In this document: piece by piece, positions 8,741 to 53,720 of the stretch
Numbering within the stretch: position 1 is the first letter of the stretch
Layout: each line of letters begins with the position of its first letter
NCBI GenBank assembly: GCA_963929435.1
Contig: CAWVIV010000006.1
Span: 2,535-66,534 of the forward strand
DNA: 64,000 nucleotides
Source of the DNA: an uncultured Bacilli bacterium
GTDB lineage: Bacteria > Bacillota_I > Bacilli_A > RF39 > UBA660
Reading direction: 5' to 3'
Notes under the pieces: generated by a model
The model's input: only the letters and a program-made list of their open reading frames with translations
Told to the model about the DNA's origin: nothing
The model's database searches: none
Made by a program: the position numbers and the translations under genes

Positions 8741-10483
8741 CTATTTAAAACTGTTCTTTTTAATAAATGGAATTGCCAAAAGAAATGGTAATGTTGTAAA
8801 TAATGAGAAAATATATCTTGTTTCATTATATACTGGTGTTGCAGCCATAATAGTTAACCATACCGCAAATAAAGGAATATATGGATAAAGAGATTTAAAG
8901 CCATTTCTTTTATAATTAATATAAGCAAAAATAAAGAAAATCCAAACTAATAATCCTATACTCCAAGTTAAAGCTACAATTGGAATATCTTGATTAGTGA
9001 TATTAGCAACATAGTCTTGGATAACCTTTGGTGCTTTAGGCTCAATTTTAACACCTTTTGTATTTTCTACTATTGTATTTTCATATGATCTATCCCAAAT
9101 ATTAGGATACCAATAACCAAGTGTACTAATAGCATAAGACTCTACCGCTATTGTTGGATGCTTAACGACAAGAGTTAACCATAATTTAAAATATTCAAAT
9201 TTATTTTCATCAAAGACTTCTTTATTATAATCATCATTAAACTTTATATTATCAGAACTCATAGGATTATAAATATTCCTTAATAAATCTACATCAATTA
9301 GTTTGTTAAGCGTCTTTTTCTCACTCTTAGTTATAACTACATCTTTATATACCATTCTTCCTATCTGTTGCATTGGAATAGCGATATATTCTGATGAAGC
9401 ACTAGTTTGAACAGAAAAGTAGTTAAAAACAGGGCCTTTAATAATAAAATAAAAACTTAAAACAATTGCGAACATTATAATTAACTTCTTATAATTATTT
9501 CTAAGCATTATAAATGAGAAAATAATCAATACAAAATACATATAAATAGCATTATTTCTAAAGAATATTGTAAAAATAGAAACAATAATAAAAGAGATCA
9601 TATTGCTAATTTTAAGATTATTTCTATTTTCTATAAGTTTATAACATTCTATAGTTAGTAATAAAAGGAAAGCTGCAAAGTAAATATCTTTCCACATAAC
9701 GATACTAAAATAGCCAAATATTGGTGTTAAAGCATAAAAAGCTAATACCGCTATCAATATTTTAAAATTAACTTTATGCTTATATAAGAAAACTAATGAA
9801 TAAGCAAATATAGATGCTAAGACAAGTATCTGGATAATTGAATAAGTCGCAATCGCTGCCGTTAGATTTTTAAAAAGTCCATATCCTATTGTATAAGCTA
9901 ATCTTATTATGAAAAGATGCACTATTGTATGATTATCAAAGGCCAATTGATTTTTTGAAGCTCGCATTAATTCTCCCCAAGAATCAGTAGAAACTGTTCC
10001 TGGAAATAAAGATAAAAAATAAGGAAGCCAAGCTAGAATTACAATAATGAAAGAAATTAAAAATACATACTTACTTTTCTTTTTATCATAAACTATCTCT
10101 TTTAACTTAACTTCACAAAGTCTAGGAACAACATTCCCTAAAAAAAGCTGAAATAAAGCTGTATAACCAATAAAGGAAATTATACTACGAAAAGTAAAGA
10201 ATTCCATAATTATACTAACGTTCCTATCATACATATACTGTATACAAAGATTTCCTAAAACCAAAAGAAAAGCAAAGATTAAAGAAAAAAAGAATTGCCC
10301 TAAATACACCCTTGTTGGCTTTTTAAAATATTTAACAAAAAGAAAAATAAGTGTTATTAATAAACAGAAGGAAAAAAAATTATAAGCTGGAACTATATTA
10401 TTTAAACATAATGTAATATAACTAATTATTGCCAAAATAACATATGTTATCTTTTTATCAAACAAAAGTAATAATTCCCTCAT
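8741..10483 (-). CDS. DUF6020-like polytopic membrane protein (putative GT-C glycosyltransferase)
   Basis: FPGTVSTDS, NHTIVH, MWKDIYF, FRNNA, IPMQQIGR, RYIFSL; paralogous to 11453-13258. Confidence 0.75.
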   Translation of the reverse strand: MRELLLLFDKKITYVILAIISYITLCLNNIVPAYNFFSFCLLITLIFLFVKYFKKPTRVYLGQFFFSLIFAFLLVLGNLCIQYMYDRNVSIIMEFFTFRSIISFIGYTALFQLFLGNVVPRLCEVKLKEIVYDKKKSKYVFLISFIIVILAWLPYFLSLFPGTVSTDSWGELMRASKNQLAFDNHTIVHLFIIRLAYTIGYGLFKNLTAAIATYSIIQILVLASIFAYSLVFLYKHKVNFKILIAVLAFYALTPIFGYFSIVMWKDIYFAAFLLLLTIECYKLIENRNNLKISNMISFIIVSIFTIFFRNNAIYMYFVLIIFSFIMLRNNYKKLIIMFAIVLSFYFIIKGPVFNYFSVQTSASSEYIAIPMQQIGRMVYKDVVITKSEKKTLNKLIDVDLLRNIYNPMSSDNIKFNDDYNKEVFDENKFEYFKLWLTLVVKHPTIAVESYAISTLGYWYPNIWDRSYENTIVENTKGVKIEPKAPKVIQDYVANITNQDIPIVALTWSIGLLVWIFFIFAYINYKRNGFKSLYPYIPLFAVWLTIMAATPVYNETRYIFSLFTTLPFLLAIPFIKKNSFK

Positions 10484-10521
10484 AATATTTTACACCTCTA
10501 TTTTTAACACTTATTAATATA

Positions 10522-11460
10522 TTAATCTCTTTTTTTCATATTAAGTAAAACTAGCTCAAATAATTGACGGTGCTTTTTAACAACTACCTCTAAAATAAGG
10601 CCACACATAAACATCAAAATAGCAACAATCAACAAGAACCCTGCAAATATTAATGTAGGAATTCTTGGCACCAAACCAGTTTTAAAGAATTCAACAAAGA
10701 CAGGGATACCAAATACCAATGATAAAATAAAGAATATTATACTTATTATACTAAAAAATATAGTTGGTTTATATTCTTTAAACAATCTAGCTATAGTTTT
10801 TAATACTCTAAAACCGTCACTATAAGTATTAAGCTTAGAAACACTTCCCTCTGGTCTATCTCTATACTCAACAGGTATCTCTTTTAATAAGAAATTTTTA
10901 TCTAAAGCATGAATAGTCATTTCTGTTTCTATTTCAAAACCTTTTGATAAAACTGGAAAAGTCTTAACAAACTCATAACTAAAAGCTCTATAGCCTGTCA
11001 TAATATCACGAATATCACTTTTAAATAAAGTATTAATTAAGCCCCTAACTAATTTATTACCAAAGTTATGAAAAGGTCTTTTATTTTCTGTAAAATATGT
11101 TGAAGATAATCTATCACCAATTACCATATCAGCTTTACCTTCCAAAACCAAATCGCACATTTCTTTAGCATTTTCTTTAGGATAAGTATCATCACCATCA
11201 ATCATTAAATAACAATCAGAATCTATATCCCTAAACATACTTCTAATAACATTACCTTTACCTTGACGATATTCATATTTAACAATGGCACCTGCTTTTT
11301 TAGCAATTTTATCTGTACCATCAGTAGAATTATTATCATAAACATAAATATCTGCTTTAGGTAAAACTTTTTTATAATCCTTTACAACTTTCTCAATAGT
11401 CTTGCTCTCATTATAACAAGGAATTAATACAGCAATCTTTTTTTCTTTATCTTTACTCAC
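10522..11460 (-). CDS. GT2 polyprenol-phosphate glycosyltransferase-like protein with two C-terminal TMs
   Basis: LIPCYNE, YDNNSTD, MIDGDDTY, DIMTGYRAF, GFEIETE, YRDRPEGSVSKL. Confidence 0.9.
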   Translation of the reverse strand: MSKDKEKKIAVLIPCYNESKTIEKVVKDYKKVLPKADIYVYDNNSTDGTDKIAKKAGAIVKYEYRQGKGNVIRSMFRDIDSDCYLMIDGDDTYPKENAKEMCDLVLEGKADMVIGDRLSSTYFTENKRPFHNFGNKLVRGLINTLFKSDIRDIMTGYRAFSYEFVKTFPVLSKGFEIETEMTIHALDKNFLLKEIPVEYRDRPEGSVSKLNTYSDGFRVLKTIARLFKEYKPTIFFSIISIIFFILSLVFGIPVFVEFFKTGLVPRIPTLIFAGFLLIVAILMFMCGLILEVVVKKHRQLFELVLLNMKKRD

Positions 11461-13258
11461 TTAAACCACTCACTTTCTTATTTTTATTAAAAAAGCATAA
11501 ACAGAATAAAACCGGCACTGTAATAATTAAAGAATATACATATCTTCTCTCACAAAATACAGGCGATAACAAAGCTGTTAAAAATACTCCTAATAATACG
11601 GAAAAGCTACATAATAACATATATCTCTTCTTATATAGAGTATAGCATATAATAGTAATCAAAGTCCACAAATAAAAGCCACAACTTGTTAGCATACTTA
11701 ACAATGGTATATTATGACTATTTAAGAATACATTTAATTCTTTTATAATTGGTGAATACACAATTGGAGTCTGTTCAATATCCAAAACTTCAGTCTCATC
11801 ATCATTATAAATAGTACTAAATACCTCCCAGCCAACTAAATTAGGATAATAATATCCATAAGAACCTGCAATAAAAGCAATTATTGTATCTTTAGGATAT
11901 TTAAAAACAAACTCTAAGTATGTAGTCACTGCATCTATCTTATGATCTTGTAAATATTCTTCTGAAAACACTCTTTTAACGGGATCAGCAAAAGTAGGGT
12001 TATAAAGTTCCATATAAGAATCATCATCAAAGAAACTATCTAATTTTTTCTTTTCACTCTTACTTAAATCATCATCATGATATTTTCTTATTCTTGCAAA
12101 CTGTTGCATAATAACAGATAAGGCTTCTTTACTATTACCGTCTTTAATATCAAAGGCACTAAAAATTGGCCCCGTAATAATAAAACTACAAATAACAGGA
12201 ATAAGAAATGGTAATAAAATTTGTTTTTTACATTTTTTAGGTAAAAATATAAGTAATACAACACCGCCTAAAAGCACACAATATAGTCCATTTTTCCTAA
12301 ATAAAATATCAAGCATAAAGAAAACGCCAAGTAATATTAAATTAGATTTCTTTTTAAAGAATTTATCTTGATTAGTACAAGCTTCCACTAAAAGAATAGT
12401 AGTTATTAAAACACATAAAGCGAATGGAATATCTTTCCACATTGTTAAACTATAAGAACAAACTATAGGACAGAACATAAAAAATAGTAATAATAATTTT
12501 TGCAATAATGCTGGCACTTGCTTCTTATGAAGATATAAAACAGCAAAAGAAAATGTAAAAGCACAAGCAAGCATCTGGATAATAGAATAAATGGCAATAC
12601 CTGCATTGTTACTACCAAATAATAAATTACCTATATTTAAACATAGTCCAATTATCAAAGTATGAAAAATAGGATGATGATTAGTTAAAGCAGTATTACC
12701 CGTAACTTGTAACATTTGTACAGCTGAATCTGCAGAACATATGCCAGGAAAATAATGTAAAAGCCAAGGAATATATGCTAAAAATATAATCAAAGCTAAT
12801 ATCAAAAAGTTTCTTTTATTAGGAACAAATAAATTATTTAATTTACTCTTAGCTTTCTCTTTTATATTAACATTATCAATAAAATTAAATAATAAAGCTG
12901 ACAAGCTTCCAAAGATAACACTACAACTTAAAAACTTAATTATTAAATAAATTGTCATTTTTAAGTTTATATCAATATCACTTAAAATATAATAAGTAAA
13001 AGTAAAACCAATAACATTCAATACTGATAAAACCGTTCCATTTATAAATGAGAAAACTAATAATCTTTTATTTTTTATTTTTAAAAGATAATTAATCATT
13101 AATGCAAAAAAGGCACAGATTATAAGCCAAACAAAATCTGTAGAATTAGCTAAAGAATTTAAAGTTAACTCCATTGCTTGAACATTATAAGCTAGAGAAA
13201 CACCTAACGTTAATATTACTGATGCTAATAAAATTAAAATAATTCTCTTTGCTGTCAT
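11453..13258 (-). CDS. DUF6020-like polytopic membrane protein (putative GT-C glycosyltransferase)
   Basis: FPGICSADS, NHHPIFHT, MWKDIPF, FRKNG, MQQFAR, RYVYS. Confidence 0.75.
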   Translation of the reverse strand: MTAKRIILILLASVILTLGVSLAYNVQAMELTLNSLANSTDFVWLIICAFFALMINYLLKIKNKRLLVFSFINGTVLSVLNVIGFTFTYYILSDIDINLKMTIYLIIKFLSCSVIFGSLSALLFNFIDNVNIKEKAKSKLNNLFVPNKRNFLILALIIFLAYIPWLLHYFPGICSADSAVQMLQVTGNTALTNHHPIFHTLIIGLCLNIGNLLFGSNNAGIAIYSIIQMLACAFTFSFAVLYLHKKQVPALLQKLLLLFFMFCPIVCSYSLTMWKDIPFALCVLITTILLVEACTNQDKFFKKKSNLILLGVFFMLDILFRKNGLYCVLLGGVVLLIFLPKKCKKQILLPFLIPVICSFIITGPIFSAFDIKDGNSKEALSVIMQQFARIRKYHDDDLSKSEKKKLDSFFDDDSYMELYNPTFADPVKRVFSEEYLQDHKIDAVTTYLEFVFKYPKDTIIAFIAGSYGYYYPNLVGWEVFSTIYNDDETEVLDIEQTPIVYSPIIKELNVFLNSHNIPLLSMLTSCGFYLWTLITIICYTLYKKRYMLLCSFSVLLGVFLTALLSPVFCERRYVYSLIITVPVLFCLCFFNKNKKVSGLSE

Positions 13259-14340
13259 TAATTAACACGCTCCTTACTGAAATCAGGGTTTACAAGTTCT
13301 TCATCAACAATATCTACTGCTCTGTTTTCATGATGACTTAAAATTATTTCTGCTAACAATATTGAACAATCAACTTCTGTATACCAAGGTTCATTTTTTA
13401 TCTCTTCTGGTACATAAGTCAAATTAGTAGAATATACCTGATCATAATATTGATTTTTATAAGCTTCCCTAAATTTCTCTATTCCTGCTGTAAATAAAGC
13501 AAAAGTAGAAACCAATATAATTTTCTTAGCACCACGCTCTTTTAGTTCTTTTGCAACATCAAGCATAGAGCCACCAGAAGCAATCATATCATCAATAACT
13601 AATACTGTTAAATCTTTAGGATCTTTTCCTAAATAAACATGTTCAACAACAGGATTTTTACCATTTACTACTTTACTCAAATCTCTTCTCTTATAAAATA
13701 ATCCAACATCAGAACCAAGCTTTTCTGCATAATATCTAGCTCGCTCCATCGCTCCCATATCTGGACTAATAACTAAAAGATTTTTTAAATCTATCGATTC
13801 ATTAGAAATAATAGAATTTAAAATTAAATCTGAAGCAAAATAGTTTTCAAAAGGTAAGTTTGGAATTGCATTAGAAACATTAGGATCATGACAATCAAAT
13901 GTAATAATATTATTAACTCCTAAAGATTCTAACTCTTGTAATGCTAAAGCACAGTCCAAAGATTCTCTTTCTCTTCTTCTATGTTGACGTGATTGATATA
14001 AGAAAGGCATAATAACTGTAACTTTAGAAAATCTACCATTTGTAGCAGAAATTACCCTTTTAATATCTTGAAAATGTTCATCTGGAGACATCTGGTGTTT
14101 ATTTCCATAAAACTCATAAGATATACTATAATTACCAACATCAGAAAGAATATATAAATCTTTATCCATAATAGATTCACTTATATAAAGTTTACCTTCG
14201 CCATTATTGAAACGACTACATACCACATTAGTAATGTAAGAATTTTTATTATTAGTCATTTCTTTTAGATGATTATCAATCTCTTCTCCAAGTTCTTTAC
14301 AATTTTCAAAAGCAATGATTTTCAAATTAGAACTTTTCAT
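13258..14340 (-). CDS. prs: Ribose-phosphate pyrophosphokinase (PRPP synthetase)
   Basis: RFNNGE, FLYQSRQ, ITFDCHD, VISPDMGA, YKRR, PRPP-binding VIDDMIASGGS. Start at ATG 14340 after GAGGTG. Confidence 0.92.
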   Translation of the reverse strand: MKSSNLKIIAFENCKELGEEIDNHLKEMTNNKNSYITNVVCSRFNNGEGKLYISESIMDKDLYILSDVGNYSISYEFYGNKHQMSPDEHFQDIKRVISATNGRFSKVTVIMPFLYQSRQHRRRERESLDCALALQELESLGVNNIITFDCHDPNVSNAIPNLPFENYFASDLILNSIISNESIDLKNLLVISPDMGAMERARYYAEKLGSDVGLFYKRRDLSKVVNGKNPVVEHVYLGKDPKDLTVLVIDDMIASGGSMLDVAKELKERGAKKIILVSTFALFTAGIEKFREAYKNQYYDQVYSTNLTYVPEEIKNEPWYTEVDCSILLAEIILSHHENRAVDIVDEELVNPDFSKERVN

Positions 14341-15460
14341 TTTTATCACCTCTTATTTTATCCCTAAATTTAACAAGTAAACTCCTAGATGAATAATTAC
14401 GTAATTTTTCATATTTTTCTAACAATAAATTAAACTCTTTTTCCCAATATTCTTTTGCATATTTCATATTTATTAAATCATTATTTATTGCAAATTTTTC
14501 CTCATTGATATTATATCTATATATTGAGACTAGTTTATTTACATAATGACAATATTTTACCATATCATAAGTAAACTCTTTTTTTAACGAAGTTTCATCA
14601 TTAATAAAATGTTGAACTCTTTTTATTAATTCATCTCTTATCTTTAAATGATCCTTACGAGCTTTTTTATTTAAATAATTTGCTAAATCAGATTGTAAAA
14701 ATTCTTCTTCACTACAATAGTCTAATAAAGATATATAATCTTCAATTCTATTAACTACATCATAATTTTTACTATCATATATTAATAATACTGGTGTACC
14801 AACAGCTAAACATGGTAATGCACAATGAAGCCTAGTAGTAATAACTAATTCTGAACTTTGATATTCATATATCAATTTCTCTACATTATCCATTCTCTCT
14901 ATATAACTCAATTTCTCATTTTTGCTTTTGTCTAAATTATGAGTAACTTCTTTAATTAAATTTTTATATTCAGATGCAACTTTTTTCTTAATATTATCAG
15001 AAACATCAACTAGTGTAATTTTTTTCTCTTTTTTAACATTTTTTAATTTTGGAATAGTCAACGTTAAACAATATGATTTATAGGTATCAACATTATTTTC
15101 CTTTAATAACTCTTCTGTTACTTTATCTCTACATCCTATAGGTTCATAAAATTTCATATATTCCTGTACATAGCCTTGCATATACTCTTTGGTAATACCA
15201 ATACCATCATTCAATGGAGAAAAATGACAAGATATAAACAAAGGATCTATATATTTAGAAGGTGGAAAACAAAATCTATTATGCATATACCAACCATTCA
15301 TTATAGTTTTTACTTTTTCATTATCATTAGAAACAAATTCGTTTAGTGATTCTCTTTCAATAAAATAATCTACCCTTGGCAATTGTTTCATAGCAGCATA
15401 ACTCTGTATATCATCACCAATATTCGTTGTCTCCTTAAATACAATTATTCCATATTTCAT
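14327..15460 (-). CDS. Polysaccharide pyruvyl transferase family protein
   Basis: NIGDDIQ, IGCRD, ITTRLHCALPCLAVGTPV. Confidence 0.85.
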   Translation of the reverse strand: MKYGIIVFKETTNIGDDIQSYAAMKQLPRVDYFIERESLNEFVSNDNEKVKTIMNGWYMHNRFCFPPSKYIDPLFISCHFSPLNDGIGITKEYMQGYVQEYMKFYEPIGCRDKVTEELLKENNVDTYKSYCLTLTIPKLKNVKKEKKITLVDVSDNIKKKVASEYKNLIKEVTHNLDKSKNEKLSYIERMDNVEKLIYEYQSSELVITTRLHCALPCLAVGTPVLLIYDSKNYDVVNRIEDYISLLDYCSEEEFLQSDLANYLNKKARKDHLKIRDELIKRVQHFINDETSLKKEFTYDMVKYCHYVNKLVSIYRYNINEEKFAINNDLINMKYAKEYWEKEFNLLLEKYEKLRNYSSRSLLVKFRDKIRGDKNEKF

Positions 15461-15461
15461 A

Positions 15462-16469
15462 TCAATTCATACTCTCTTCTATAAATTTCTTAAAATCTTT
15501 TGCCTTGTAATCCCAAGACCATTTTTTTATTTGTTCTAAATTTTCTTTAGAAATCAAATCTACATCATCAATATTTTCAATAAACAACAATATTTTCCTT
15601 TTTAATTCTTCTTGACTACGCTCTTTCATTATATATTTTTTTTGATTTTTTCCAAATAAATCTCTTACTATACCTACATCAGTAGATATTACAGGAATTC
15701 CACAAGCAAACGATTCAAGTATTGGATTAGGAGTTCCTTCATTAACAGAGCAACAAAGATATAAATCAATTTCATTATAATATTCAACCATCTCTTCACG
15801 ATTTCTTAAACGTTCAGTGCTATCAGCCAAATGTAAATTTATATTATATCCTTCAGAAATCAACTCTTTAATTACAGGCTTAATTATAGTATTAAGTCCT
15901 TTATGATCATATTGACCATTCCATTTACTATTTCCAACCCAACCAATATTAATTGTCCTTTCTTTTATATTCTTAAATCTATCTTTTTTAGGTTTAAATA
16001 AATTTAAATCAACACCATCCGTAATTACACAATTAGGATATTTATTTAATTCTAAATGCCCATATAAATCTTTTAACAAACCAGAAGAAACATAATATCC
16101 TTTTATGTATTTACAAAATTCATTTATCTCTTCTGAACTAAGCAATTTATGATCGTATACTGCCGTTGTAATATTCTTATTTTTTATATATTTATCTATA
16201 AATTCAGTTTTTGATAGTCCCAAATTATAAATATAACTTTCTGTATAATTGTTGTTTAAATCTAATAAAAATCCTCGCCAAAAAAAGTGAATTAAATCAT
16301 ATTCTTGAGCAAACATAAATAAATCAGTAATATTTCCATTTAATCTTTCCATTGCAACTATATCAATATCAAAATCATTCTTTAAGTACTTTTGAAAATT
16401 ACTAGCAATATTATAAAAAGCCCACTTTTCATTATCAACTACTAACAAAATACGTTTTTTCTTACTCAT
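15462..16469 (-). CDS. GT4-type glycosyltransferase
   Basis: IGWVGNS...KG, EGTPNPILESFACGIPVISTDVG (EX7E motif). Confidence 0.88.
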   Translation of the reverse strand: MSKKKRILLVVDNEKWAFYNIASNFQKYLKNDFDIDIVAMERLNGNITDLFMFAQEYDLIHFFWRGFLLDLNNNYTESYIYNLGLSKTEFIDKYIKNKNITTAVYDHKLLSSEEINEFCKYIKGYYVSSGLLKDLYGHLELNKYPNCVITDGVDLNLFKPKKDRFKNIKERTINIGWVGNSKWNGQYDHKGLNTIIKPVIKELISEGYNINLHLADSTERLRNREEMVEYYNEIDLYLCCSVNEGTPNPILESFACGIPVISTDVGIVRDLFGKNQKKYIMKERSQEELKRKILLFIENIDDVDLISKENLEQIKKWSWDYKAKDFKKFIEESMN

Positions 16470-16710
16470 GATTCTTCCCTCTTAAATTAAATAAAAATCT
16501 TTTCTTTTTTGTAATATCAGCATCATTAGGTTTATTTAATAGATAAAATATTTCATCCCTAATATTAGGAAATTTAGGCCTTTCTTCTTCTCTACCATTC
16601 CAATAATTATTTAAAATAATCTGTAATTCGTGATTTTCCATCTCATATATTTTAACTTTTTCTTCATTAATAACTTTATTAAGTTCATCTTCTTTTATAA
16701 CTTTCCCCAT
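16462..16710 (-). CDS. Small hypothetical protein
   Basis: 82-aa ORF with GGTGA RBS, packed in the operon and overlapping the next gene. Confidence 0.6.
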   Translation of the reverse strand: MGKVIKEDELNKVINEEKVKIYEMENHELQIILNNYWNGREEERPKFPNIRDEIFYLLNKPNDADITKKKRFLFNLRGKNHE

Positions 16711-16719
16711 ATAATCACC

Positions 16720-17880
16720 TTATTTATTAATAATTTTTCTATACGCTTTATAAATTCTAGGATGATTATTTCTTAAACGTCTGCCTACAAACTTTTTAAT
16801 TGAACTATCTTTTGTTTCATATTTTACATAAACATCAAAGAAAAATTTAGATTTTGTTTCTAGAACCTCTTGTGTTACTGAAGGCATTTTATTTAATTTT
16901 GTTACAGTATCAAAGAATTTAGCAGATGATTCTTGCCAAGAGCACCACTCGCTAGCTGTCTTAACAGCACCTTTCTTAAGTTTATTTAAATATTTACTAT
17001 CATCTTTTAATTTATTAATACTATCTATAACATCTTGTTCATCATCAGTTTTAACGACTATACCATTTTTACCATTAACAATATACTCATCATGACCTGT
17101 AACATCATAAACAATAGCCGTACCACCGCAATGAAACATCTCTAAAGGTGGACCAAACATTCCTTCAACATAGCTTAATTTAACAATAGCATCACAAGAA
17201 CGATAAATCTTAGCACAATCTTTTGGTGGAATCTGTGAAAATACTCTATCAACACCTTCATACTCTTCAACCTTAGAAGATGTTAATAACCAAACTTCAT
17301 CTGCTTTACTTTGTTTAACAAGTTCTATAGTCCGAGGAACATTTTTAAAAGCAACATCTACTGGTCCTTCAACTAAAATTCTAAGGCCATCACACTTCTC
17401 ATAAGTATCACCAGTAGCTTTATAAATATCTTTTCTAATACCATTATGGACTAAATATGCATCTACACCATATTTAGCTAAATACTCTTTAATCCAAGTA
17501 GCTTCAGTAATAACTTTCATATCTAAAAAGTAAGTCATCTCAGCTAACATTTTAATGCCTTGTTCTTCCTCTGAATAAAACTTTGATTCTATAGACTGAA
17601 CAAAATAAACATAATGTTTAGCTTTAATTCTATATAACTCATAAACAGTTCTCCACCAAGTAGCAATAGCCATATCAAATTCCATATTAACTATATCATC
17701 ATAAGTAACCCATTTTAAGATATGAGCATAAGTATGCCAAGCATATTCTTCAGGATCTACTTTACGATCAGTAACAATATAAACCTCTGCTCCTTGTCTA
17801 GCCATATAAGTTGCATGTTCAAAAATTACAGTTGTCCCTCCACCTATAGCAGGTGAACCTAAAGTAAAAATACATTTCAT
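16720..17880 (-). CDS. GT-B/GT4-like glycosyltransferase
   Basis: GGGTTVIFEHA; KLSYVEGMFGPPLEMFHCGG (EX7E motif). Confidence 0.8.
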   Translation of the reverse strand: MKCIFTLGSPAIGGGTTVIFEHATYMARQGAEVYIVTDRKVDPEEYAWHTYAHILKWVTYDDIVNMEFDMAIATWWRTVYELYRIKAKHYVYFVQSIESKFYSEEEQGIKMLAEMTYFLDMKVITEATWIKEYLAKYGVDAYLVHNGIRKDIYKATGDTYEKCDGLRILVEGPVDVAFKNVPRTIELVKQSKADEVWLLTSSKVEEYEGVDRVFSQIPPKDCAKIYRSCDAIVKLSYVEGMFGPPLEMFHCGGTAIVYDVTGHDEYIVNGKNGIVVKTDDEQDVIDSINKLKDDSKYLNKLKKGAVKTASEWCSWQESSAKFFDTVTKLNKMPSVTQEVLETKSKFFFDVYVKYETKDSSIKKFVGRRLRNNHPRIYKAYRKIINK

Positions 17881-17881
17881 C

Positions 17882-19936
17882 CTAAATAACTCCTTTCCTC
17901 TTTAGATCTATCTTCTTACCTAATTTATAAGTAAATCTAGGAATAAATAATTTTTCATTATATAACTTCTGTAGTGGCCAATACCAACTATCAAAGAAGA
18001 AATCTTTATGTCTTAAATAGTATTTAGCATTTTCTTTAATATAATACTTCCAAGTCATCTTTTTATCTGATTTAAATTCTGTAAACTCAAAAACGCCAAA
18101 GTTTTCATAATGATATATTTTACTGAAAAAATTAAGCTGTTCCTTTGTAGGTTCAAATATCATCTTATAATGAATTTGATTAATCATTTTCTCTACTCTA
18201 TCTTCATCATAATAATTATCTGCTAATATATCTATTAATTGTTTAAACAAATTAAACATTGTATCTTGAATTTTAGAAACAACATCTACATATATTTTTT
18301 GCTCTTCTTTCTTTTCAAATAAAGCTACTTTAACAGTATTATCTTCTTCATAATATCTATTAGCACTACCATGAGAAGCACCTAATAAAACTTCATAAAG
18401 GCTTCTACTTTCATTAAATAAATTATAATTTAAGCTTTCCTTAGGAACATTAGAAAATAATACCCCTTTTTTAGCTTTACTAGCTTTGGGAATCCTGCTA
18501 ACTAGACCAACTAAATAACCAGAAACTTTATAATCCTCGCCTAAAATATTGGCAATATTATCTTGAATGGAACCATTCCAACCTACATCGACTAAACATA
18601 TATCTCTATCATCAGTAAATTGTTTTATATACTTTTTAAATAAAGTATTTTGTTCCACCCTATTTTTCTCGTATAATTCTTTAAAAGTTTTATTATCTTT
18701 TAATCTTCTTAAAATACAAGATTTATTTAACGAATAAACACGTTCTTTTAAATCTTTATTAATAATACTCTTTAACCCTTTCTCCTCATCTTTACTAAGT
18801 TTTAACTCATTAAGAAGCTTCTTAGTATCAGAAACAAAGCTATCTTCTATTTTCTTTAAGTCTTCCTTAGTAAAATTTAAACTCTTAAGTAACTCTTCAA
18901 CACTTGTATAAGAATATTGGTTTAATAAATAATCAAAATTTTCTTCTTTTAAACTTTTTAATGATGGTAAATAGGTAGCTTTTCTAGAAACTAATAGATA
19001 ATAACTCTTTATCTTATCACCATGAATATGTTTAACATATTCATCAAATAATTTTTTTAAAAACTCTCCTTCTCTTGATAAAAAGAATACTTCTTTTCTG
19101 CCTTCTCTAACTAAATTAAAATATAATTTTTCAATAAATAAATACAATGAAAAGATTAAATGCTCAAAATTATTAGTAGAAGTACTAGCTAGCTCTTCTA
19201 ATTTTTTATAAATATCTTTTTCATGTTCAAAAGCCTCATCTTGCATTTTTTGATAACCTCGATGATTTTTTTCACGATTCAAATGAATAGCAACTATTCC
19301 TTTAGCTTTAGGTGAGTCATAATCTGAATATTGATTATCCCCTACCATCACACACTCTGAAGCTTTAGCTTTAATATTCTTTAAAACTACCTCATATAAA
19401 GCACCGCTTTTCTTATTCTTTAAATATTCACAAGAAATAAAATAATCATCAAAAAAATCATCAATACCATGATTAGCAAAAATTTGCTTAATCATATCTT
19501 TAGATAAATACATATCTGAAACACAATAAATCTTTTTACCTTCACTTTTTAATTCTTTTATTTCTTTTATTACTTCTTCATCAACTATCTGAACAGCACT
19601 TTCAACACTAACTTCTATCCTTGTTGACAAATCTTGAAAAGCTTTTTGACTCATTTTAAAGTCAAACATCTTATACATTTCTTTTAATAAATCTTTATAA
19701 GTAAATTCAAAATCATGTCCCGAATTATTATTATTAAAGCCAAGATTATATTCTATTTTCTGTCTAGCTTCATAAATCTCATTCATTGTAATTTCATCAT
19801 CTAAAATTTTAGCCAAATGATTAGCCCAAATTCTTTTAGTATTTTCAGGAAATACATTTCTTTTTACAATAGTATCAAAAATATCAAAAAATACATATTT
19901 ATATTTCTTATCATGTAACTTTTCTAATTCCTTCAT
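17882..19936 (-). CDS. Putative ribofuranosyltransferase: N-terminal HAD phosphatase + C-terminal glycan phosphoribosyltransferase domain
   Basis: HAD motifs FFDIFDT, VSDMY, K, VGDNQYSD. The C-terminal half has FFLSREG, VSRKA and a PRPP-binding-loop-like VDVGWNGSIQ. Confidence 0.72.
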   Translation of the reverse strand: MKELEKLHDKKYKYVFFDIFDTIVKRNVFPENTKRIWANHLAKILDDEITMNEIYEARQKIEYNLGFNNNNSGHDFEFTYKDLLKEMYKMFDFKMSQKAFQDLSTRIEVSVESAVQIVDEEVIKEIKELKSEGKKIYCVSDMYLSKDMIKQIFANHGIDDFFDDYFISCEYLKNKKSGALYEVVLKNIKAKASECVMVGDNQYSDYDSPKAKGIVAIHLNREKNHRGYQKMQDEAFEHEKDIYKKLEELASTSTNNFEHLIFSLYLFIEKLYFNLVREGRKEVFFLSREGEFLKKLFDEYVKHIHGDKIKSYYLLVSRKATYLPSLKSLKEENFDYLLNQYSYTSVEELLKSLNFTKEDLKKIEDSFVSDTKKLLNELKLSKDEEKGLKSIINKDLKERVYSLNKSCILRRLKDNKTFKELYEKNRVEQNTLFKKYIKQFTDDRDICLVDVGWNGSIQDNIANILGEDYKVSGYLVGLVSRIPKASKAKKGVLFSNVPKESLNYNLFNESRSLYEVLLGASHGSANRYYEEDNTVKVALFEKKEEQKIYVDVVSKIQDTMFNLFKQLIDILADNYYDEDRVEKMINQIHYKMIFEPTKEQLNFFSKIYHYENFGVFEFTEFKSDKKMTWKYYIKENAKYYLRHKDFFFDSWYWPLQKLYNEKLFIPRFTYKLGKKIDLKRKGVI

Positions 19937-19941
19937 TTTAT

Positions 19942-20679
19942 CTACTCTCCCATTTGCTTATGATAATACTCATCACATATTTCTTTAACATCACCTATTT
20001 TAACAATTTGTCCATGCTCAAGCCAAACAACCCGATTACATAACTCGCGAATAGACTCTAATGAATGAGAAACATAAAGAACTGTTGTCCCACCTTTTAT
20101 CATTTCTAACATTTTATTTTTACTTTTCTCTTGAAATTTAATATCGCCAACTGATAAAATTTCATCTACAATTAAAATCTCTGGATTAACAATAGTTGCA
20201 ATAGAAAAAGCAAGTTTTGCAACCATACCTGAAGAAAAGTTTCTTATAGGTACATCTAAAAAATCTCTTAATTCTGAAAATTCCACAATCTCATCAAACT
20301 TTTCATCTAAAAAAGCTTTAGAATAGCCTAAAATTGAGCCATTTAAATATATATTTTCTCTTGCTGTAAGTTCAGGATCAAAACCTGCTCCAAGCTCTAT
20401 CATAGGAGAAATAACACCATTAACTGTAACTTTACCTTCTGTAGGCTTCATAACACCACTTACTACTTTTAATAAAGTACTTTTCCCAGCCCCATTACTT
20501 CCGATAAGACCAACTACTTCTCCTTTTTTAACTGAAAACGATACATCTTTTAAAGCCCAGAAATCACTCTTTTGAGGTCTTCTTTTTTTATCAAAAATTG
20601 AAATAAAAGCCTCTTTAATTGAAAAGTTTTTCTCTATTCCCAAATTAAATTTCATTGAAACGTGCTCTAATTTTATCAT
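19942..20679 (-). CDS. wzt: Polysaccharide ABC exporter ATPase without C-terminal carbohydrate-binding module
   Basis: GSNGAGKST, IELGAGFDPELTARENI, FSSGMVAKLAF, DEILSVGD; only 245 aa. Confidence 0.92.
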   Translation of the reverse strand: MIKLEHVSMKFNLGIEKNFSIKEAFISIFDKKRRPQKSDFWALKDVSFSVKKGEVVGLIGSNGAGKSTLLKVVSGVMKPTEGKVTVNGVISPMIELGAGFDPELTARENIYLNGSILGYSKAFLDEKFDEIVEFSELRDFLDVPIRNFSSGMVAKLAFSIATIVNPEILIVDEILSVGDIKFQEKSKNKMLEMIKGGTTVLYVSHSLESIRELCNRVVWLEHGQIVKIGDVKEICDEYYHKQMGE

Positions 20680-20690
20680 ATACAGACCTC

Positions 20691-21503
20691 CTAAATATAG
20701 TAAATAAACTTATCTTGTTTTTTCTTAAAGACAAAGGCTCCAATAAGTAAAGTACCAACTCCGATTAAACCTAAAATTACTAAAGTTGTTATTGAAGGTC
20801 TTGCCCCATACAAGACAATACTTCTAACAGAAGTAATGAATTGATATAAAGGATTAAACTTAAATAAAGTTTGAAGAGAAGCTGGTAATATATCAATACT
20901 ATAAAATACCGGAGTAAAATAATTCCAAATAGTCAAAATTATTCCATAAATATAGAACATATCTCTTAAAAATACAGAAATACAAGATAATAACAAACCT
21001 ATACCAACCGTAAATAAGAAAAAGCATAAGAAAATATAAGGAATTAATAAATAATACCAATTAATAGAAGCAGGATATGTACCTAATCCGAACTGAGTTA
21101 AAATAATCAAAATAAGCCATGGAATCAAAGTTAAGACAAAATTAATTCCTACAAAGATACACTTAGCAACTGGGAAAATATATTTTGGAATATAAACCTT
21201 ATTTATAAGCCCAAAGTTGCCAACAACAGATGTCATTGCATTATTAGTCGCTTCACTAAAATATTGAAACATTACAATACCTGTCATTAAATAAACAAGG
21301 TAATTAATTCCCTCAACACTAAATCTAAACATTTGTGAGAAAACCATTGCCATAACAGTCATCATAAGTACAGGATAAAGTAAACTCCAAACAACACCTA
21401 AAACAGATCTTTTATATTTTACTTTAAAGTCTCTTGTAATTAATTGACTCATAAGAAATTGATACCTTTTAAAATTGCTTAAAATATTTTTTACATTTGT
21501 CAT
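20691..21503 (-). CDS. wzm: Polysaccharide ABC exporter permease
   Basis: RDFKVKYKRSVLGVVWSLLYP, FLRDM, FTPVFY, NPL. Start at ATG 21503 after GAGGTG. Confidence 0.92.
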   Translation of the reverse strand: MTNVKNILSNFKRYQFLMSQLITRDFKVKYKRSVLGVVWSLLYPVLMMTVMAMVFSQMFRFSVEGINYLVYLMTGIVMFQYFSEATNNAMTSVVGNFGLINKVYIPKYIFPVAKCIFVGINFVLTLIPWLILIILTQFGLGTYPASINWYYLLIPYIFLCFFLFTVGIGLLLSCISVFLRDMFYIYGIILTIWNYFTPVFYSIDILPASLQTLFKFNPLYQFITSVRSIVLYGARPSITTLVILGLIGVGTLLIGAFVFKKKQDKFIYYI

Positions 21504-21641
21504 CAAATTACACCTCATAATCATAATAACATATATCATTATTTATTTCAAAACAAAACTGGAAATTCAGTAAAAAAGAGTAAATTTTTTTCGCAATAAA
21601 TTTGATATAATTACTACATAATAAAAAGGTGGTATGTAGTA

Positions 21642-22927
21642 ATGAACAGAAAGCAAAGAAGAGAATTAAGAAAAAATAAAGATTTGATAAAGGAATTATA
21701 TTCTATTATTAATAAATATCTTCCTGATTTATTAAATATGTTTAGTAATTTAACTGATGGTAGAAATGAAAGTTATATAACATATGAAATGAAAACAATA
21801 TGTGTTACTCGTCTTTTTAGTCTTCTTTGTGATCTTACTACGATGACTGACATTTCTTCTGATACTTTTAATACTGATAATTGTATTAAAAATTTATCTA
21901 AAATCTGTGGGCAAGATTTAGAAGAACTTCCTTACTGAGAAACTATTCAAGATGTATTTATTAATATAGATACTAATGAGTTAAGAAATATTCAAAAATA
22001 TATTGTCAAAGCTTTAATACGTTCTAAAATGTTTGATAAATTTCGATATAACGGTGCATTTCAACTAGTATTTGATGGTACTGGTCTATCTAGTCATGAT
22101 TATAATCTTAATAACAACTGCCTGATTAGAAAACATAAAGACGGGAAAATCTCTTATTACAAGTATGTTTTAGAATATAAATTAGTTGTTGGTAATATTA
22201 TTATCAGTTTAGATTCAGAATTTATTGAAAATGAAAAAATGATTACAGAAAAACAAAAGTAAGATTGTGAAATTAAAGCTTTTAAAAGAATGATTAAACG
22301 TGTTAAAAAGAATTATCCAAAATATAAATTCATTATTACCGGAAATGCCTTATATGCTGTAGAAACAATTATAGAAATTTGTGAAAAAAATAAGTGGAAT
22401 TATATTTTTAATTTAAAACCTGATAGATTGAAAGAAATTAATAGTACTTTTGAAGAAATATACAATTCAACAATGAAGTTAAGCATAAATACTATTATCT
22501 TTCTACTAATATCAATTATAGAAATCACATACTTAGTGCGTTTAAATATATAGAATCTAAAAATAAAAAAACAACTATTTTTCGTTATATTAGTAATATG
22601 GATATTAATGATAATAGTATTAAAGAAATAGTATCTCTTGGAAGAAAAAGATGGAAAATAGAAAATGAAGGTTTCTATAACCAAAAGCATAGAACTTTCA
22701 ACATTTCTCATTTAAACAGTAGAAATGACAATGCTATGAAAGTTCATTATTTCTTTATCCAATTTGCCCATACTATAAGACAATTATTAGAACAAGGAAA
22801 TCTATTGACTAAATCATTAAAACTTAAAATAAAAGAAGTAAGTCGTTTCCTTCTATACGCACTTACTTCCACAATCTCAGATCTTAATAATTTAGAAACT
22901 AACTTTCAATTAAGATTTGATGATTAA
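21642..22927 (+). pseudogene. Decayed DDE transposase (IS family not assignable)
   Basis: One frame runs through in-frame TGA (21936) and TAA (22260), followed by a frameshift near 22460. Motifs FDGTG, KQDCEIKAFKR, ITG[N]ALYA (Asp replaced by Asn), RWKIENEGFYNQK. Confidence 0.8.
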
Positions 22928-23029
22928 ATTATACACTATTTGTTCTTTGAAATCACTACTTTTTATATATTTTTTTACACTTTACATGGTGTCTTTTTGT
23001 CGTGATTTAAAATATAATATGCTAGGCAC

Positions 23030-23615
23030 TGGCGGATAATATCCATTGACTTTCAGTCACATAAATCCTTTGAGGACTAGCCTTTGTAAATAAAAAGTAA
23101 TAAGATAAAACAGAGGTGAGAAAGATGCAAAAAGGGGCCCACACACAGTATGATGTGCAAATACATGTAGTATGGATAACAAAATATAGAAAGAAAATAT
23201 TAACATACAAAATTGCGTATAGATTAAAAGAGCTACTAATGCAAGGTTGTTCGGCAAAAGGAATAACAATAATAAGGGGTAATATACAACCAGAACATGT
23301 GCATTTGTTGTTAAGTATTCCACCAACCTTGTCAATAGCACAGGTAATGCAATATCTAAAAGGAAGAAGCTCTAAAAAGTTACAAGAGGAATTTTCAAAA
23401 TTAAGGAAGCAATTTGGGGGACAACATATGTAGGCGCCAGGATATTTTTGTAAAAGTGTAGAGCAAGTAACTAGACAAACTATAGAAGAATATATTGAAA
23501 ATCAAAAGGATGGAATAGAAGACATATTTGTAAATGATGACAATAGCATGCTTTAGCATAGAAAGAGTTCCAGTCCTTACATCAACCACTGTACTTTCAG
23601 TGCAGGGTGGTTGAT
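23030..23615 (+). mobile_element. tnpA: Decayed IS200/IS605-family element, tnpA only
   Basis: Y1 transposase 23125-23556 (HVVWITKYRK, HUH motif EHVHLL, KGRSS) with premature TAG at 23431. 3' subterminal hairpin TCAACCAC-TGTACT-TTC-AGTGCA-GG-GTGGTTGA at 23582-23614. Confidence 0.85.
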
Positions 23616-23750: not shown

Positions 23751-26294
23751 CTAAAACCAAACGCTTACATCAACATTACCTTCAATACCTGGAATCCTCT
23801 CTGTTGATGAATATTGCCACCCAACATAATTACCACCATAATAACAATAATGATTATATTGTGCAATCCAAGCAATTAAACTTTTTAAATAATCAGAATT
23901 TAATACAGTTTCAGCATAGCTTGTATAGGTATAAATTTTAGCAAGCGAACCATAACCACTACTATTCATAACTTCCATAAATCCTCTTGTAACCTCTTCA
24001 TACTCATAAGTACCCATATAACTTGTAATATTATTGCTCTCTAAATCAAGATAAATGCCTAAAGTAGGATTCATATTATATTTTCTTATCATCTCTAATG
24101 TAAAATTAGCATATAGCCTACCTTCATCTTTATTTTCAGCATAACTATATATATAAATACCATAAGGTATACCAAGGCGTTGTAATTCTGCTATATTTCT
24201 AGCGAGCATAGCATCTTCTTCTTCACAACCAGCTGCTATTCTTAAAATTACGCCATCTACTCCACCTTGACTTATAACAGTATTCCAATCAATAAACCCC
24301 TGGTAAGCAGAAACATCGATTACTTTCTTTACATTTTCTCCAATCATAACCCCAAGAGAATTAAAGAAATACTTCTTACCAGTAATAGTCACCCAATCAT
24401 TAGCATAAGTACCATCAGGATAATAATATCTAACATTACCATCAGTATCGGTAACAAAGCCATCACGTAACTTACCATCTGTATTAAAGACATAATTAAC
24501 ATCATCTATTGTCTTTTCGCCAACTGTCATCTCACCAGTACTAGGATCAAAATAATACATATAACCATCAATTAAAACCCAACTAGTACGCATTGCACCA
24601 TTTACACGACTAAAGAATCTAGTTATACCTTCAACTACTTGAAAACCTGTTTGCATTACCCCTTCATCATTAAAATAATAATAAACTCCGTCTATAGGAA
24701 AAAAACCAGTTCGCATTTCATGATTATTAATACGGCTAAAGAAATAAGTATTACCATCAATTACTTGAAAGCCAAAATCCTGTAATCCTAACTCATCAAA
24801 ATAATACTTAAGGCCTTCTATTTCAACGATACCAAGTTGCATTTTACCAGTTTCATCAAAATATCTAATACCTCCAATCATTTCTTGCCAACCAGTTTGC
24901 ATTATTCCTTCGTCATTAAAATAATAATAAATACCATCTATAGCAAAAAGACCTGTTCTTAATTTGCCATCTAATCTACCAAAGAAATAAGTATTTCCAT
25001 CAATTACTTGAAAGCCTATTTGCATTGCTCCTTCGTCATTAAAATAATAAGTATCATCATCTATAACAAGCACTCCTGTCTGAGCCACACCAGTTTTCTC
25101 ATCAAGATAATAGGTATTCATACCATCTGTTTGAAAGCCTGTTTGCATTATTCCATCTTCGTTAAAAAAGTAATAACTACCATCTATATTAATATAGCCA
25201 ACTGCCATACCACCGTTATCATCAAAATACATAGTGTTACCATCTAACTTTTTCCATCCTGTTTGCATTATTCCTTCATCATTAAAATAATAATAAATGC
25301 CATCAATTGCAAATATTCCTATTCTCATTTCATTATTATTAGTACGTCCAAAAAAATAAGTATTTCCATCTATTTCTCTAAAACCACTTGCTCTTTTACC
25401 ATCTGCATCAAAATAATAAGTATAACCATCTTCTTCATACCATCCTGTCTGCATAACCCCAGTTTCATCAAAATAATACTCTGAACCATCAATTGCAAAT
25501 ATTCCTGTTCTCATTTCATTATTATTAGTACGTCCAAAGAAATAAGTCTTTCCATCTATTTCCCTAAAGCCACTCGCTCTTTTACCATCTGCATCAAAAT
25601 AATAAGTATAGCCATCTTCTTCATACCATCCTGGTTGCGCAGCACCATCAGAACCAAATCTATACATAACATCATCAATCTTAAACATGCCTGTACGCAT
25701 TTCATTATTATTTATACGACTAAAGAAATAAGTATTACCACCTATCTCCCTAAAGCCACTTGCTCTTTTACCATCTGCATCAAAATAATAAGTATAACCA
25801 CCTTCTTTATACCATCCTGTTTGCATAACCCCAGTTTCATCAAAATAATACACTGAACCATCAATTGTAAATATTCCTGTTCTCATTTCATTATTATTAG
25901 TACGTCCAAAGAAATAAGTATTTCCATCTATCTCTCTAAAACCACTCGCTCTTTTACCATCTGCATCAAAATAATAAGTATAACCATCGTCTTCATACCA
26001 TCCTGTTTGCATAACCCCATTAGAATCAAAATAATATACTGAACCATCAATTGCAAATATTCCTGTTCTCATTTCATTATTATTAGTACGCCCAAAAAAA
26101 TAGGTATTACCATCTATTACTTGAAAACCTGTCTGTTTAACACCATTAACATAATAGTATGTATAGCCGCCTTCAGTAACTAAACCATTTAATGCATTAT
26201 ATGTACTTTCTTCATTATTTATTTCATCTGCATTAACTGTTAATGGACATATAATAAGCAATGCAACTATAAATACAAATATTTTTCTATTCAT
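23751..26294 (-). CDS. Secreted cell-wall-binding-repeat protein with C-terminal GH25 muramidase domain
   Basis: Signal peptide, about 30 YYF..G.MQTG repeats, and a C-terminal domain with IDVSAYQG, GVILR, YLDLES, WIAQY, WQYSS, VDVS. Confidence 0.9.
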   Translation of the reverse strand: MNRKIFVFIVALLIICPLTVNADEINNEESTYNALNGLVTEGGYTYYYVNGVKQTGFQVIDGNTYFFGRTNNNEMRTGIFAIDGSVYYFDSNGVMQTGWYEDDGYTYYFDADGKRASGFREIDGNTYFFGRTNNNEMRTGIFTIDGSVYYFDETGVMQTGWYKEGGYTYYFDADGKRASGFREIGGNTYFFSRINNNEMRTGMFKIDDVMYRFGSDGAAQPGWYEEDGYTYYFDADGKRASGFREIDGKTYFFGRTNNNEMRTGIFAIDGSEYYFDETGVMQTGWYEEDGYTYYFDADGKRASGFREIDGNTYFFGRTNNNEMRIGIFAIDGIYYYFNDEGIMQTGWKKLDGNTMYFDDNGGMAVGYINIDGSYYFFNEDGIMQTGFQTDGMNTYYLDEKTGVAQTGVLVIDDDTYYFNDEGAMQIGFQVIDGNTYFFGRLDGKLRTGLFAIDGIYYYFNDEGIMQTGWQEMIGGIRYFDETGKMQLGIVEIEGLKYYFDELGLQDFGFQVIDGNTYFFSRINNHEMRTGFFPIDGVYYYFNDEGVMQTGFQVVEGITRFFSRVNGAMRTSWVLIDGYMYYFDPSTGEMTVGEKTIDDVNYVFNTDGKLRDGFVTDTDGNVRYYYPDGTYANDWVTITGKKYFFNSLGVMIGENVKKVIDVSAYQGFIDWNTVISQGGVDGVILRIAAGCEEEDAMLARNIAELQRLGIPYGIYIYSYAENKDEGRLYANFTLEMIRKYNMNPTLGIYLDLESNNITSYMGTYEYEEVTRGFMEVMNSSGYGSLAKIYTYTSYAETVLNSDYLKSLIAWIAQYNHYCYYGGNYVGWQYSSTERIPGIEGNVDVSVWF
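25263..26130 (-). repeat. Intragenic tandem repeat, 186-bp (62-aa) period, about 4.5 near-identical copies
   Basis: The marker AAATATTCCT recurs at 25311, 25497, 25869 and 26055 (multiples of 186), with a diverged copy in between. Confidence 0.85.
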
Positions 26295-31965: not shown

Positions 31966-32418
31966 CTATTCTAAAAATATTTTTCTAGTCACAAAGTTAA
32001 ATATCATTACAATAATAGTTGCAATTATCTTAGCAAGTAAATAATAAATACTTAAGAAATCTACTGTTATCCACATAATTACATTATTGAGTATAAGACC
32101 TATGACACTAAATACAATAAAAATAACAAATTGTTTTTTAGCATCTTTTTCTTTATTAACATCAAATACCCACTTAACACTTGCAATATAGTTATATATA
32201 ACAGAAATACAAAATGATAATGTATTAGAAACAAGCACAGGAAAATGACAAAATTCTCTAAATACATAAAGAAAAACAAAGTCAATTACAAAAGCAGTAC
32301 CACCAACAATACCAAACTTAAATATTTGAATCAATAATTTTCTTGTTTTAGGCTTAAACTTTAAATGAAAAAGTTTACATATACCATCAAATAAACACGC
32401 AATCTTATCTTCTTTCAT
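31966..32418 (-). CDS. GtrA-family flippase
   Basis: QIFKFGIVGG, NY...KWVF, four TMs, FNFVTRKIF. Adjacent to the GtrB-like gene. Confidence 0.9.
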   Translation of the reverse strand: MKEDKIACLFDGICKLFHLKFKPKTRKLLIQIFKFGIVGGTAFVIDFVFLYVFREFCHFPVLVSNTLSFCISVIYNYIASVKWVFDVNKEKDAKKQFVIFIVFSVIGLILNNVIMWITVDFLSIYYLLAKIIATIIVMIFNFVTRKIFLE

Positions 32419-53262: not shown

Positions 53263-53720
53263 CATTCTACCTCACAACTTGCATCTTTTGTTAATCTTTC
53301 TATCCCTGCGATTGAATTAGAACATGCTTGGCTTTCATATCCTGAACATTTTAAACAAGCAGAATATTCTATATCCATATTAAAGCCTGTATTATTATTT
53401 CTTTTTACAATAGCATAACTTTCTAAATTACAAGTTCTATTAGAAACATTAGGATCTTCAAGATTATTTACATATCCTTCACAGATTAACTTAGATACAT
53501 CAACTACTAAAGATTCACCTTCTAAAGGAATATATCCTGTATGATCTATTAAATAGTTAGTAACTCCATCAGTAATATTTTTTTCATAATCCTCATAAAC
53601 TGCAGATTTTGTTCTATCTAAATACTGTGACACTCCCATATAAGCAAGAGTTACTAAAATACCAAGTATAATTATGACGGCAAGTAATTCTAGCATTGTA
53701 AATCCCTTTTTATTTATCAT
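53262..53720 (-). CDS. Type IV prepilin-like protein
   Basis: Class III signal peptide KKG|FTMLELLAVIIILGIL; C-terminal Cys pairs; GAGGAG RBS. Confidence 0.88.
   Translation of the reverse strand: MINKKGFTMLELLAVIIILGILVTLAYMGVSQYLDRTKSAVYEDYEKNITDGVTNYLIDHTGYIPLEGESLVVDVSKLICEGYVNNLEDPNVSNRTCNLESYAIVKRNNNTGFNMDIEYSACLKCSGYESQACSNSIAGIERLTKDASCEVE

Follow-up and report, generated by a model that had tools for sequence, protein, structure and literature searches.

The window, which means the whole stretch of 64,000 nucleotides analysed here, belongs to a 1.5-Mb MAG of an uncultured Bacilli bacterium (23 contigs, 87.6% complete), and its G+C content is about 26%. It carries a run of minus-strand genes for glycan assembly (Table 1), in the order wzm, wzt, RibfT, GT4a, an 82-aa ORF, GT4b, pyruvyl transferase and prs, followed by three genes encoding a DUF6020 membrane protein, a GtrB-like GT2 and a second DUF6020 protein. 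The RibfT gene, which is the subject of this study, has a ribosome-binding site (GGGAGAG) 8-9 nt 5' of its ATG.

Table 1. Features of the glycan assembly locus (positions in the window)
Feature	Position	Strand	Remarks
wzm, ABC-2 type permease of glycan exporter	20691..21539	-	PF01061, E 6.8e-17
wzt, ABC ATPase	19942..20679	-	245 aa; PF00005, E 1.5e-23
RibfT, predicted dual-domain ribofuranosyltransferase	17882..19936	-	684 aa, single ORF, ATG start
PRP (HAD-type phosphoribose phosphatase) domain, coding part	19174..19936	-	residues ~10-250
gPRT (glycan phosphoribosyltransferase) domain, coding part	17885..19173	-	residues ~255-626
GT4a, GT4-family (GT-B, retaining) glycosyltransferase	16720..17880	-	PF00534/PF13439
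82-aa ORF	16462..16710	-	no Pfam/NCBIfam match
GT4b, second GT1/GT4-type glycosyltransferase, accessory	15462..16469	-	Pfam
Polysaccharide pyruvyl transferase family protein	14327..15460	-	PF04230, E 3.2e-23
prs, PRPP synthetase paralogue, PRK06827 type	13258..14349	-	363 aa; NF005299

From position 21539 down to at least 8741 the neighbouring genes were separated by gaps or overlaps of a few bases; along wzm-wzt-RibfT-GT4a the gaps were 11, 5 and 1 bp. The initial annotation had placed the RibfT gene directly after wzm-wzt, and this is matched with the gene order, since the permease and ATPase genes lie just 5' of it on the same strand. Judged from its length and Pfam matches, Wzt leaves no space for an extra C-terminal carbohydrate-binding domain. 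A scan found no minus-strand terminator-like site inside the operon, which is a weak test in AT-rich DNA, and promoter-like sites were fewer than in shuffles of this AT-rich DNA. Transposase remnants were observed upstream of wzm.

Domain architecture and fold of RibfT

Pfam recognised a HAD domain (PF00702) at residues 12-208 of RibfT with E 1.2e-12. All HAD-type matches in Pfam and NCBIfam were located within residues 12-228, and residues ~250-684 had zero matches in these two collections. RibfT carries the public label "HAD hydrolase" because Pfam sees the HAD part alone. The C-terminal domain has no Pfam match because Pfam lacks a model for it, not because the domain is absent, and we did not count this as a sign of novelty.

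The HAD motifs pointed out by the initial annotation were all present in the translation: DIFDT (18-22), SD (140-141), K175 and GDNQYSD (199-205, with G199-D200-N201..S204-D205). D18, D21, S140, D141 and K175 were invariant in an alignment of 18 homologues, and D18 fell on the DIFDT motif in both Bcs3 of Haemophilus influenzae type b and the Thermobacillus composti protein of known structure (7SHG). HAD motif I is DxxDT instead of the canonical DxDxT, which is the same in Bcs3, 7SHG and the whole family. In Salmonella STM0726 the invariant HAD aspartate D14 is catalytic, and the D14A exchange traps the Ribf-5-P product (PMC11294581). The two motifs quoted from the C-terminal part, FLSREG (285-290) and VDVGWNGSIQ (449-458), were also found, and they lie at or next to the loops of the presumed PRPP site. 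Invariance in the family alignments indicates that the quoted motifs are not due to chance.

A phmmer search against all PDB chains gave 7SHG as the best match with E 6.5e-126, covering both domains (query 9-626) in two aligned stretches, 9-389 and 406-626, and the identity was 38-39% over about 620 residues. Bcs3 (8A0C) was the second, with E 1.2e-11 over query residues 16-368. The structure 7SHG, from Kelly et al. 2022 (cited after PMC11294581 and PMC11194591), is the PRP-gPRT prototype. The AlphaFold2 model of RibfT, calculated with 18 homologues, had a mean pLDDT of 89.4 and pTM of 0.90. In the Foldseek comparison of the whole model with the PDB, which the initial annotation had suggested as a check, 7SHG (E 4e-41) and Bcs3 (E 2.7e-19) were the top matches, and ordinary single-domain HAD phosphatases ranked below them. 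The proposal that the "HAD hydrolase" is a dual-domain ribofuranosyltransferase agrees well with these results; by sequence and model, RibfT appears to be a clear, straightforward orthologue within the PRP-gPRT ribofuranosyltransferase family.

RibfT and 7SHG have the same layout, an N-terminal HAD PRP domain and a C-terminal gPRT domain, and both contain the motifs SREG, SRK and DVGW(N/K)GS. There are three differences. RibfT has an insertion of ~25 residues within the helical region at ~370-400, which is common to the gut Bacilli clade; it has a basic helical C-terminal tail of 58 residues (627-684) that is absent from the crystallised chain; and its two domains are oriented differently, with a whole-chain rmsd of 6.1 A compared with 2.2 A for the C-terminal domain alone.

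The C-terminal domain was also modelled alone (residues 255-684, 30 diverse relatives, pLDDT 87.8). Foldseek matched this model with 7SHG at E 1e-24 and TM 0.72, the rmsd of 2.2 A being calculated over 361 columns, and with the CriT domain of Bcs3 at E 1e-8, so the predicted structure has the gPRT/CriT fold. The initial annotation had likened this domain to type I phosphoribosyltransferases (PRTases), and this claim stands in part. The relation to the gPRT/CriT fold held; a direct type I PRTase fold match is not claimed, because Foldseek retrieved no classical PRTase: after Bcs3 the best match had E 0.48 and was not a PRTase. Pfam also gave no match to PF00156 in RibfT. The label "PRTase-like" rests on the published superposition of CriT with type I PRTases (PMC10299916), not on a direct match, and the resemblance is remote. 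By analogy, type I PRTases (PF00156) and RibfT would share the use of PRPP, together with a parallel beta-sheet core and a glycine-rich 5-phosphate loop after a strand with an acidic end. However, the two acidic ribose ligands of RibfT would come from two loops and not from a DD pair, and its acceptor would be a sugar hydroxyl and not a nitrogen base.

We considered and rejected a three-component PPPRS route of the UbiA type, which leads to alpha-Ribf. In PPPRS systems the PRP domain is fused to an integral-membrane prenyl phosphoribosyltransferase of the UbiA family (PMC11127046), whereas the C-terminal domain of RibfT is a soluble alpha/beta gPRT homologous to 7SHG, and it had no UbiA match.

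Residues of the predicted PRPP site were compared with Bcs3. In the phmmer alignment S287-R288-E289 of RibfT (loop 1) falls on S678-R679-D680 of Bcs3, and S317-R318 (loop 2, within the motif SRK) falls on S707-R708. According to a docked CriT model, these Bcs3 residues bind PRPP at its pyrophosphate, ribose and 5-phosphate, and the exchanges D680A and E818A reduced the activity of Bcs3 (PMC10299916). D680 is replaced by E289 in RibfT, and R712 is replaced by Y or F in the RibfT clade (Y322 in RibfT). The third loop, D450-VGWNGS, comes after a beta strand, as the 5-phosphate loop of CriT comes after E818; D450 is probably the counterpart of E818, matched by position and not by alignment.

Conservation of the gPRT domain was compared in 30 relatives, which came from Bacillota, Pseudomonadota, Desulfobacterota, Bdellovibrionota, Bacteroidota, Cyanobacteria-related lineages and Peribacteria. 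E289, S317, R318, T321, D450, G452, W453, G455 and Q458 were invariant, and so were K489, E515, H522-G523-S524, E545, H609 and E611. RibfT seems to carry the conserved PRPP-binding and catalytic residues of the 7SHG family, with their roles taken from the work on CriT (PMC10299916).

Bcs3 has the domain order CroT-CrpP-CriT-SH3b, in which CrpP (HAD) and CriT, a PRPP-dependent Ribf-5-P transferase, are homologous to the two domains of RibfT. The identity is only 18-20%. The parts of Bcs3 that aligned with RibfT were residues ~385-760 and, weakly, 885-970; RibfT has no extra domains, and it lacks both the CroT ribitol-phosphate transferase and SH3b. A teichoic-type polymer like that of Bcs3 was rejected for lack of a CroT/TagF-like domain. 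Genes for CDP-ribitol were likewise not seen in the window.

The wzm-wzt-RibfT-GT4a cassette and its predicted glycan

A scan for relatives, taking one genome per species, found 389 of them, and the best 80 loci were examined. Enough flank was available in 76 loci, and in 57 of them a GT4a homologue followed RibfT directly in the same orientation; a wzt homologue was within 3.5 kb 5' of RibfT in 51 of 63; wzm is likewise conserved 5' of the RibfT homologues. RibfT is encoded in a glycan assembly locus and has the same neighbours in most of these best 80 loci, and wzm-wzt-RibfT-GT4a is a minimal cassette common to many phyla. The Paenibacillaceae loci related to 7SHG also carry wzm, wzt and a GT4a homologue. 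Other genes of the operon are less constant. Among the best 80 of 389 relatives the 82-aa ORF was kept only in locus L006 and GT4b was present in few related loci. The pyruvyl transferase gene kept its place behind GT4a in the loci of the related Bacilli MAGs.

GT4a was the better conserved partner. Its median identity in the best 80 of 389 relatives was 52.7%, compared with 35% for RibfT, and it was ~50% identical from Paenibacillus to Desulfobulbales, Bdellovibrionota, Peribacteria and Bacteroidota. This suggests a constrained catalytic role of GT4a. A sequence search of GT4a against the PDB gave remote GT4 matches only, and a large homologue search gave 1954 matches.

Two known systems are close to this arrangement. 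In Klebsiella pneumoniae O4, ORF5 (RibfT) and ORF6 (a GT4 galactosyltransferase) are sufficient in vitro to polymerise the disaccharide repeat [4)-alpha-Galp-(1-2)-beta-Ribf-(1] of the [Galp-Ribf]n O antigen, which is exported by Wzm/Wzt (PMC11231755). Both loci combine a dual-domain RibfT with a neighbouring GT4 and an ABC transporter, a likeness in gene content that was set by description and not by sequence. Unlike Klebsiella, the present host looks like a gut bacterium of Gram-positive type with a small genome and not like an LPS producer, and its operon is extended by genes for a pyruvyl transferase, another GT4 and the prs paralogue. In Campylobacter jejuni HS:2, Cj1432 unites a retaining GT4, which glycosylates O-2 of ribose, with PRP and gPRT in one chain (PMC12096443). 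RibfT and GT4a would have the same three predicted activities, likened by description, but in two adjacent genes instead of a fusion, and the capsule export system of C. jejuni is different.

We propose that RibfT acts in the cytoplasm as a PRP-gPRT family enzyme which transfers ribofuranose in two steps. The gPRT domain would bind PRPP-Mg by the three loops S287-R288-E289, S317-R318 and D450-VGWNGS, and would attach ribofuranose-5-phosphate, beta-linked, to a hydroxyl on the lipid-linked chain under synthesis, presumably on a hexose, with release of PPi. The HAD domain, with D18 as the predicted nucleophile, would then strip the 5-phosphate, so that the chain could be extended. GT4a, whose gene follows that of RibfT after 1 bp, most likely attaches a hexose to this Ribf residue, probably at O-2. 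Alternation of RibfT and GT4a would build an [hexose-beta-Ribf]n backbone, and Wzm-Wzt would export this polymer. An alternating hexose-Ribf polymer is the most likely product by analogy with K. pneumoniae O4 and C. jejuni Cj1432. We give this whole reading, from beta-Ribf-5-P transfer and dephosphorylation to the ABC-exported hexose-ribofuranose polymer, a probability of about 0.85.

Priming of the polymer would fall to a WecA/TagO-type enzyme whose gene is outside the window. No priming enzyme was found within the window; the genome had a single match to PF00953, WecA/TagO-like, on contig C10, and no match to PF02397. No GT137-type Kdo terminator was found.

It is also conceivable that RibfT is a ribofuranose homopolymerase like STM0726 of Salmonella, placing several Ribf one after another, and that GT4a serves as an adaptor, as a transition transferase or as a partner without catalysis of its own. 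STM0726, which polymerises Ribf, shares the two-domain fold, and catalysis by its neighbour glycosyltransferase STM0725 is not required (PMC11294581). However, STM0726 is only ~16% identical to 7SHG (PMC11294581), while RibfT reaches 38-39%. The higher conservation of GT4a than of RibfT suggests a constraint on its catalysis, and in the precedents of K. pneumoniae O4 and C. jejuni the GT4 that accompanies RibfT is catalytic (PMC11231755, PMC12096443). We consider a homopolymer improbable.

A little less probable again is that RibfT decorates a backbone, synthesised by GT4a, GT4b and the GT2s further upstream, with one Ribf only, either as a side branch or as a terminal cap. Several more glycosyltransferase genes are indeed nearby, and members of this family work in varied glycan contexts (PMC11127046), but GT4b and the others are not conserved with the cassette, and the minimal set of wzm, wzt, RibfT and GT4a is better suited to a two-enzyme repeat unit. 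That RibfT is a generic HAD phosphatase with an uncharacterised domain and no glycosyltransferase function, as the recognition of the HAD part alone by Pfam and NCBIfam might suggest, has almost no chance against the full-length homology to a solved and named ribofuranosyltransferase and the conserved PRPP-site residues.

The enzyme family, the two-step mechanism and the use in ABC-transporter-dependent glycans are already in the literature of 2022-2024, and RibfT adds nothing to the understanding of the family itself. With the alternating hexose-Ribf polymer as the preferred reading, an uninformative label is replaced by a specific predicted function, and a ribofuranose-containing, ABC-exported cell-envelope polymer is predicted in an uncultured lineage of small-genome gut Bacilli. 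The RibfT-GT4 pair is a conserved cassette that travels through many phyla and has its own prs in one clade.

A PRPP synthetase paralogue linked to the cassette

The operon-linked prs is the sole modestly novel feature of the locus. It is located four genes 3' of the wzm-wzt-RibfT-GT4a cassette and scored 450 bits against the PRK06827 model NF005299, for which the cut-off is 327. It probably raises the PRPP supply for the polymer. The genome has a second prs, of housekeeping type, on contig C1; the two copies share 60-62% identity.

Seventeen species of this genus were compared: 10 had the housekeeping-type prs only (57-62% identity) and 7 had no match, and none of the 17 had a close RibfT orthologue. 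Among the best 80 loci from the 389 relatives the operon-type prs (69-78% identity) occurred only in L003-L008, beside RibfT-GT4a-PyrT. Linkage of prs with the cassette was thus limited to 6 of 80, which are the nearest gut Bacilli MAGs, and 4 of these 6 genomes had a second, more distant prs. Two genomes with the cassette but without a linked prs had the housekeeping type only.

Because the linkage occurs in just 6 of 80 loci, prs is not needed for the pathway in general. In view of where it occurs, the operon prs counts as a separate paralogue that moves together with this form of the cassette. Such a distribution, as read from the sequences, fits both a role in donor supply and an origin by horizontal transfer.

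A wider proposal has two parts: that the operon prs is a dedicated donor supply for glycan ribosylation, which gut Bacilli with small genomes gained along with the cassette, and that the cassette stands for a single hexosyl-ribofuranose polymer in all the many phyla that carry it. Taken together we regard them as tentative and on balance rather doubtful. If it is true, the operon prs would do for PRPP what NDP-sugar synthesis genes do for their donors in other polysaccharide loci. The prs in the cassette hints that glycan synthesis drawing on PRPP, a central nucleotide precursor, can need an extra supply.

The housekeeping prs on contig C1 adjoins an ORF of 196 aa, which is putatively nadD-like.

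Distribution of the cassette and the PRPP synthetase paralogue

The cassette wzm-wzt-RibfT-GT4, in which RibfT is the PRP-gPRT dual-domain ribofuranosyltransferase, was conserved in many phyla, as seen in the window and in L003-L082, the best 80 of the 389 loci with RibfT relatives. The carriers included Paenibacillus, Lachnospiraceae, Desulfobulbales (with cable bacteria), Bdellovibrionota, Peribacteria, Pontibacter, Neisseria and Vibrio. The cassette GT4 was about 50% identical across loci and was more conserved than RibfT.

The operon-type PRPP synthetase belonged to an orthologue group with 69-78% identity, which was found only beside RibfT-GT4a-PyrT (PyrT, pyruvyl transferase) in six related MAG loci. 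A second, housekeeping-type PRPP synthetase, showing 60-62% identity to the operon copy, was encoded elsewhere in the same genome.

Features of the glycan region, its surroundings and related genomes
Feature	Position	Strand	Remark
wzm-wzt-RibfT-GT4 cassette	16720-21539	-	counterparts in L003-L082
PRPP synthetase paralogue	13258-14349	-	PRK06827-type; within glycan operon
Two DUF6020 polytopic membrane proteins + GtrB-like GT2	8741-13258	-	
GtrB-like GT2	10522-11460	-	DUF6020 gene on each side
GtrA-family gene	31966-32418	-	farther upstream
Transposase remnants	21642-23433	+	directly upstream of wzm
Secreted 847-aa protein	23751-26294	-	GH25 muramidase C-terminal; just upstream of glycan operon
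Apparently split mutL	51468-53265	-	two ORFs
mutL N-terminal ATPase + DNA_mis_repair part	52261-53265	-	334 aa
MutL_C ORF	51468-52040	-	190 aa
WecA/TagO-like gene	G000:C10:31207-32331 (L083 4207-5331)	-	PF00953
Distant PRP-gPRT-like segment	G017:C12:26886-27941		same-genus genome
Distant PRP-gPRT-like segment	G015:C2:8675-9739		same-genus genome

Putative membrane glycosylation genes

Together, the GtrB-like GT2, the DUF6020 proteins and GtrA resemble a three-component extracytoplasmic glycosylation system, in which DUF6020 would be a candidate GT-C-like transferase. The sole PF00953 match in the genome was WecA/TagO-like (145 bits with the wecA model vs 71 with mraY) and had an M23/SpoIIQ-like gene and mreB as neighbours. 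This MAG, which is 87.6% complete, showed no MraY apart from it.

Possible acquisition and neighbouring genes

Because none of 17 same-genus species had a close RibfT orthologue, the region with the glycan genes appears to be variable and acquired. The transposase remnants comprised DDE_Tnp_1 fragments in short ORFs and a 105-aa piece of IS200-like Y1 transposase. The distant segments of G017 and G015 showed 29-30% identity and were embedded in far longer open frames (1305 and 837 aa), which may be multi-enzyme fusions like Bcs3 or Cj1432 in sister species.

Besides its muramidase domain, the secreted protein carried about ten choline-binding-type cell-wall repeats, and one of the neighbouring clusters might make the wall polymer that it binds. 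The two apparent mutL ORFs lay about 220 bp apart; a frameshift, pseudogenization or misassembly could explain the split.
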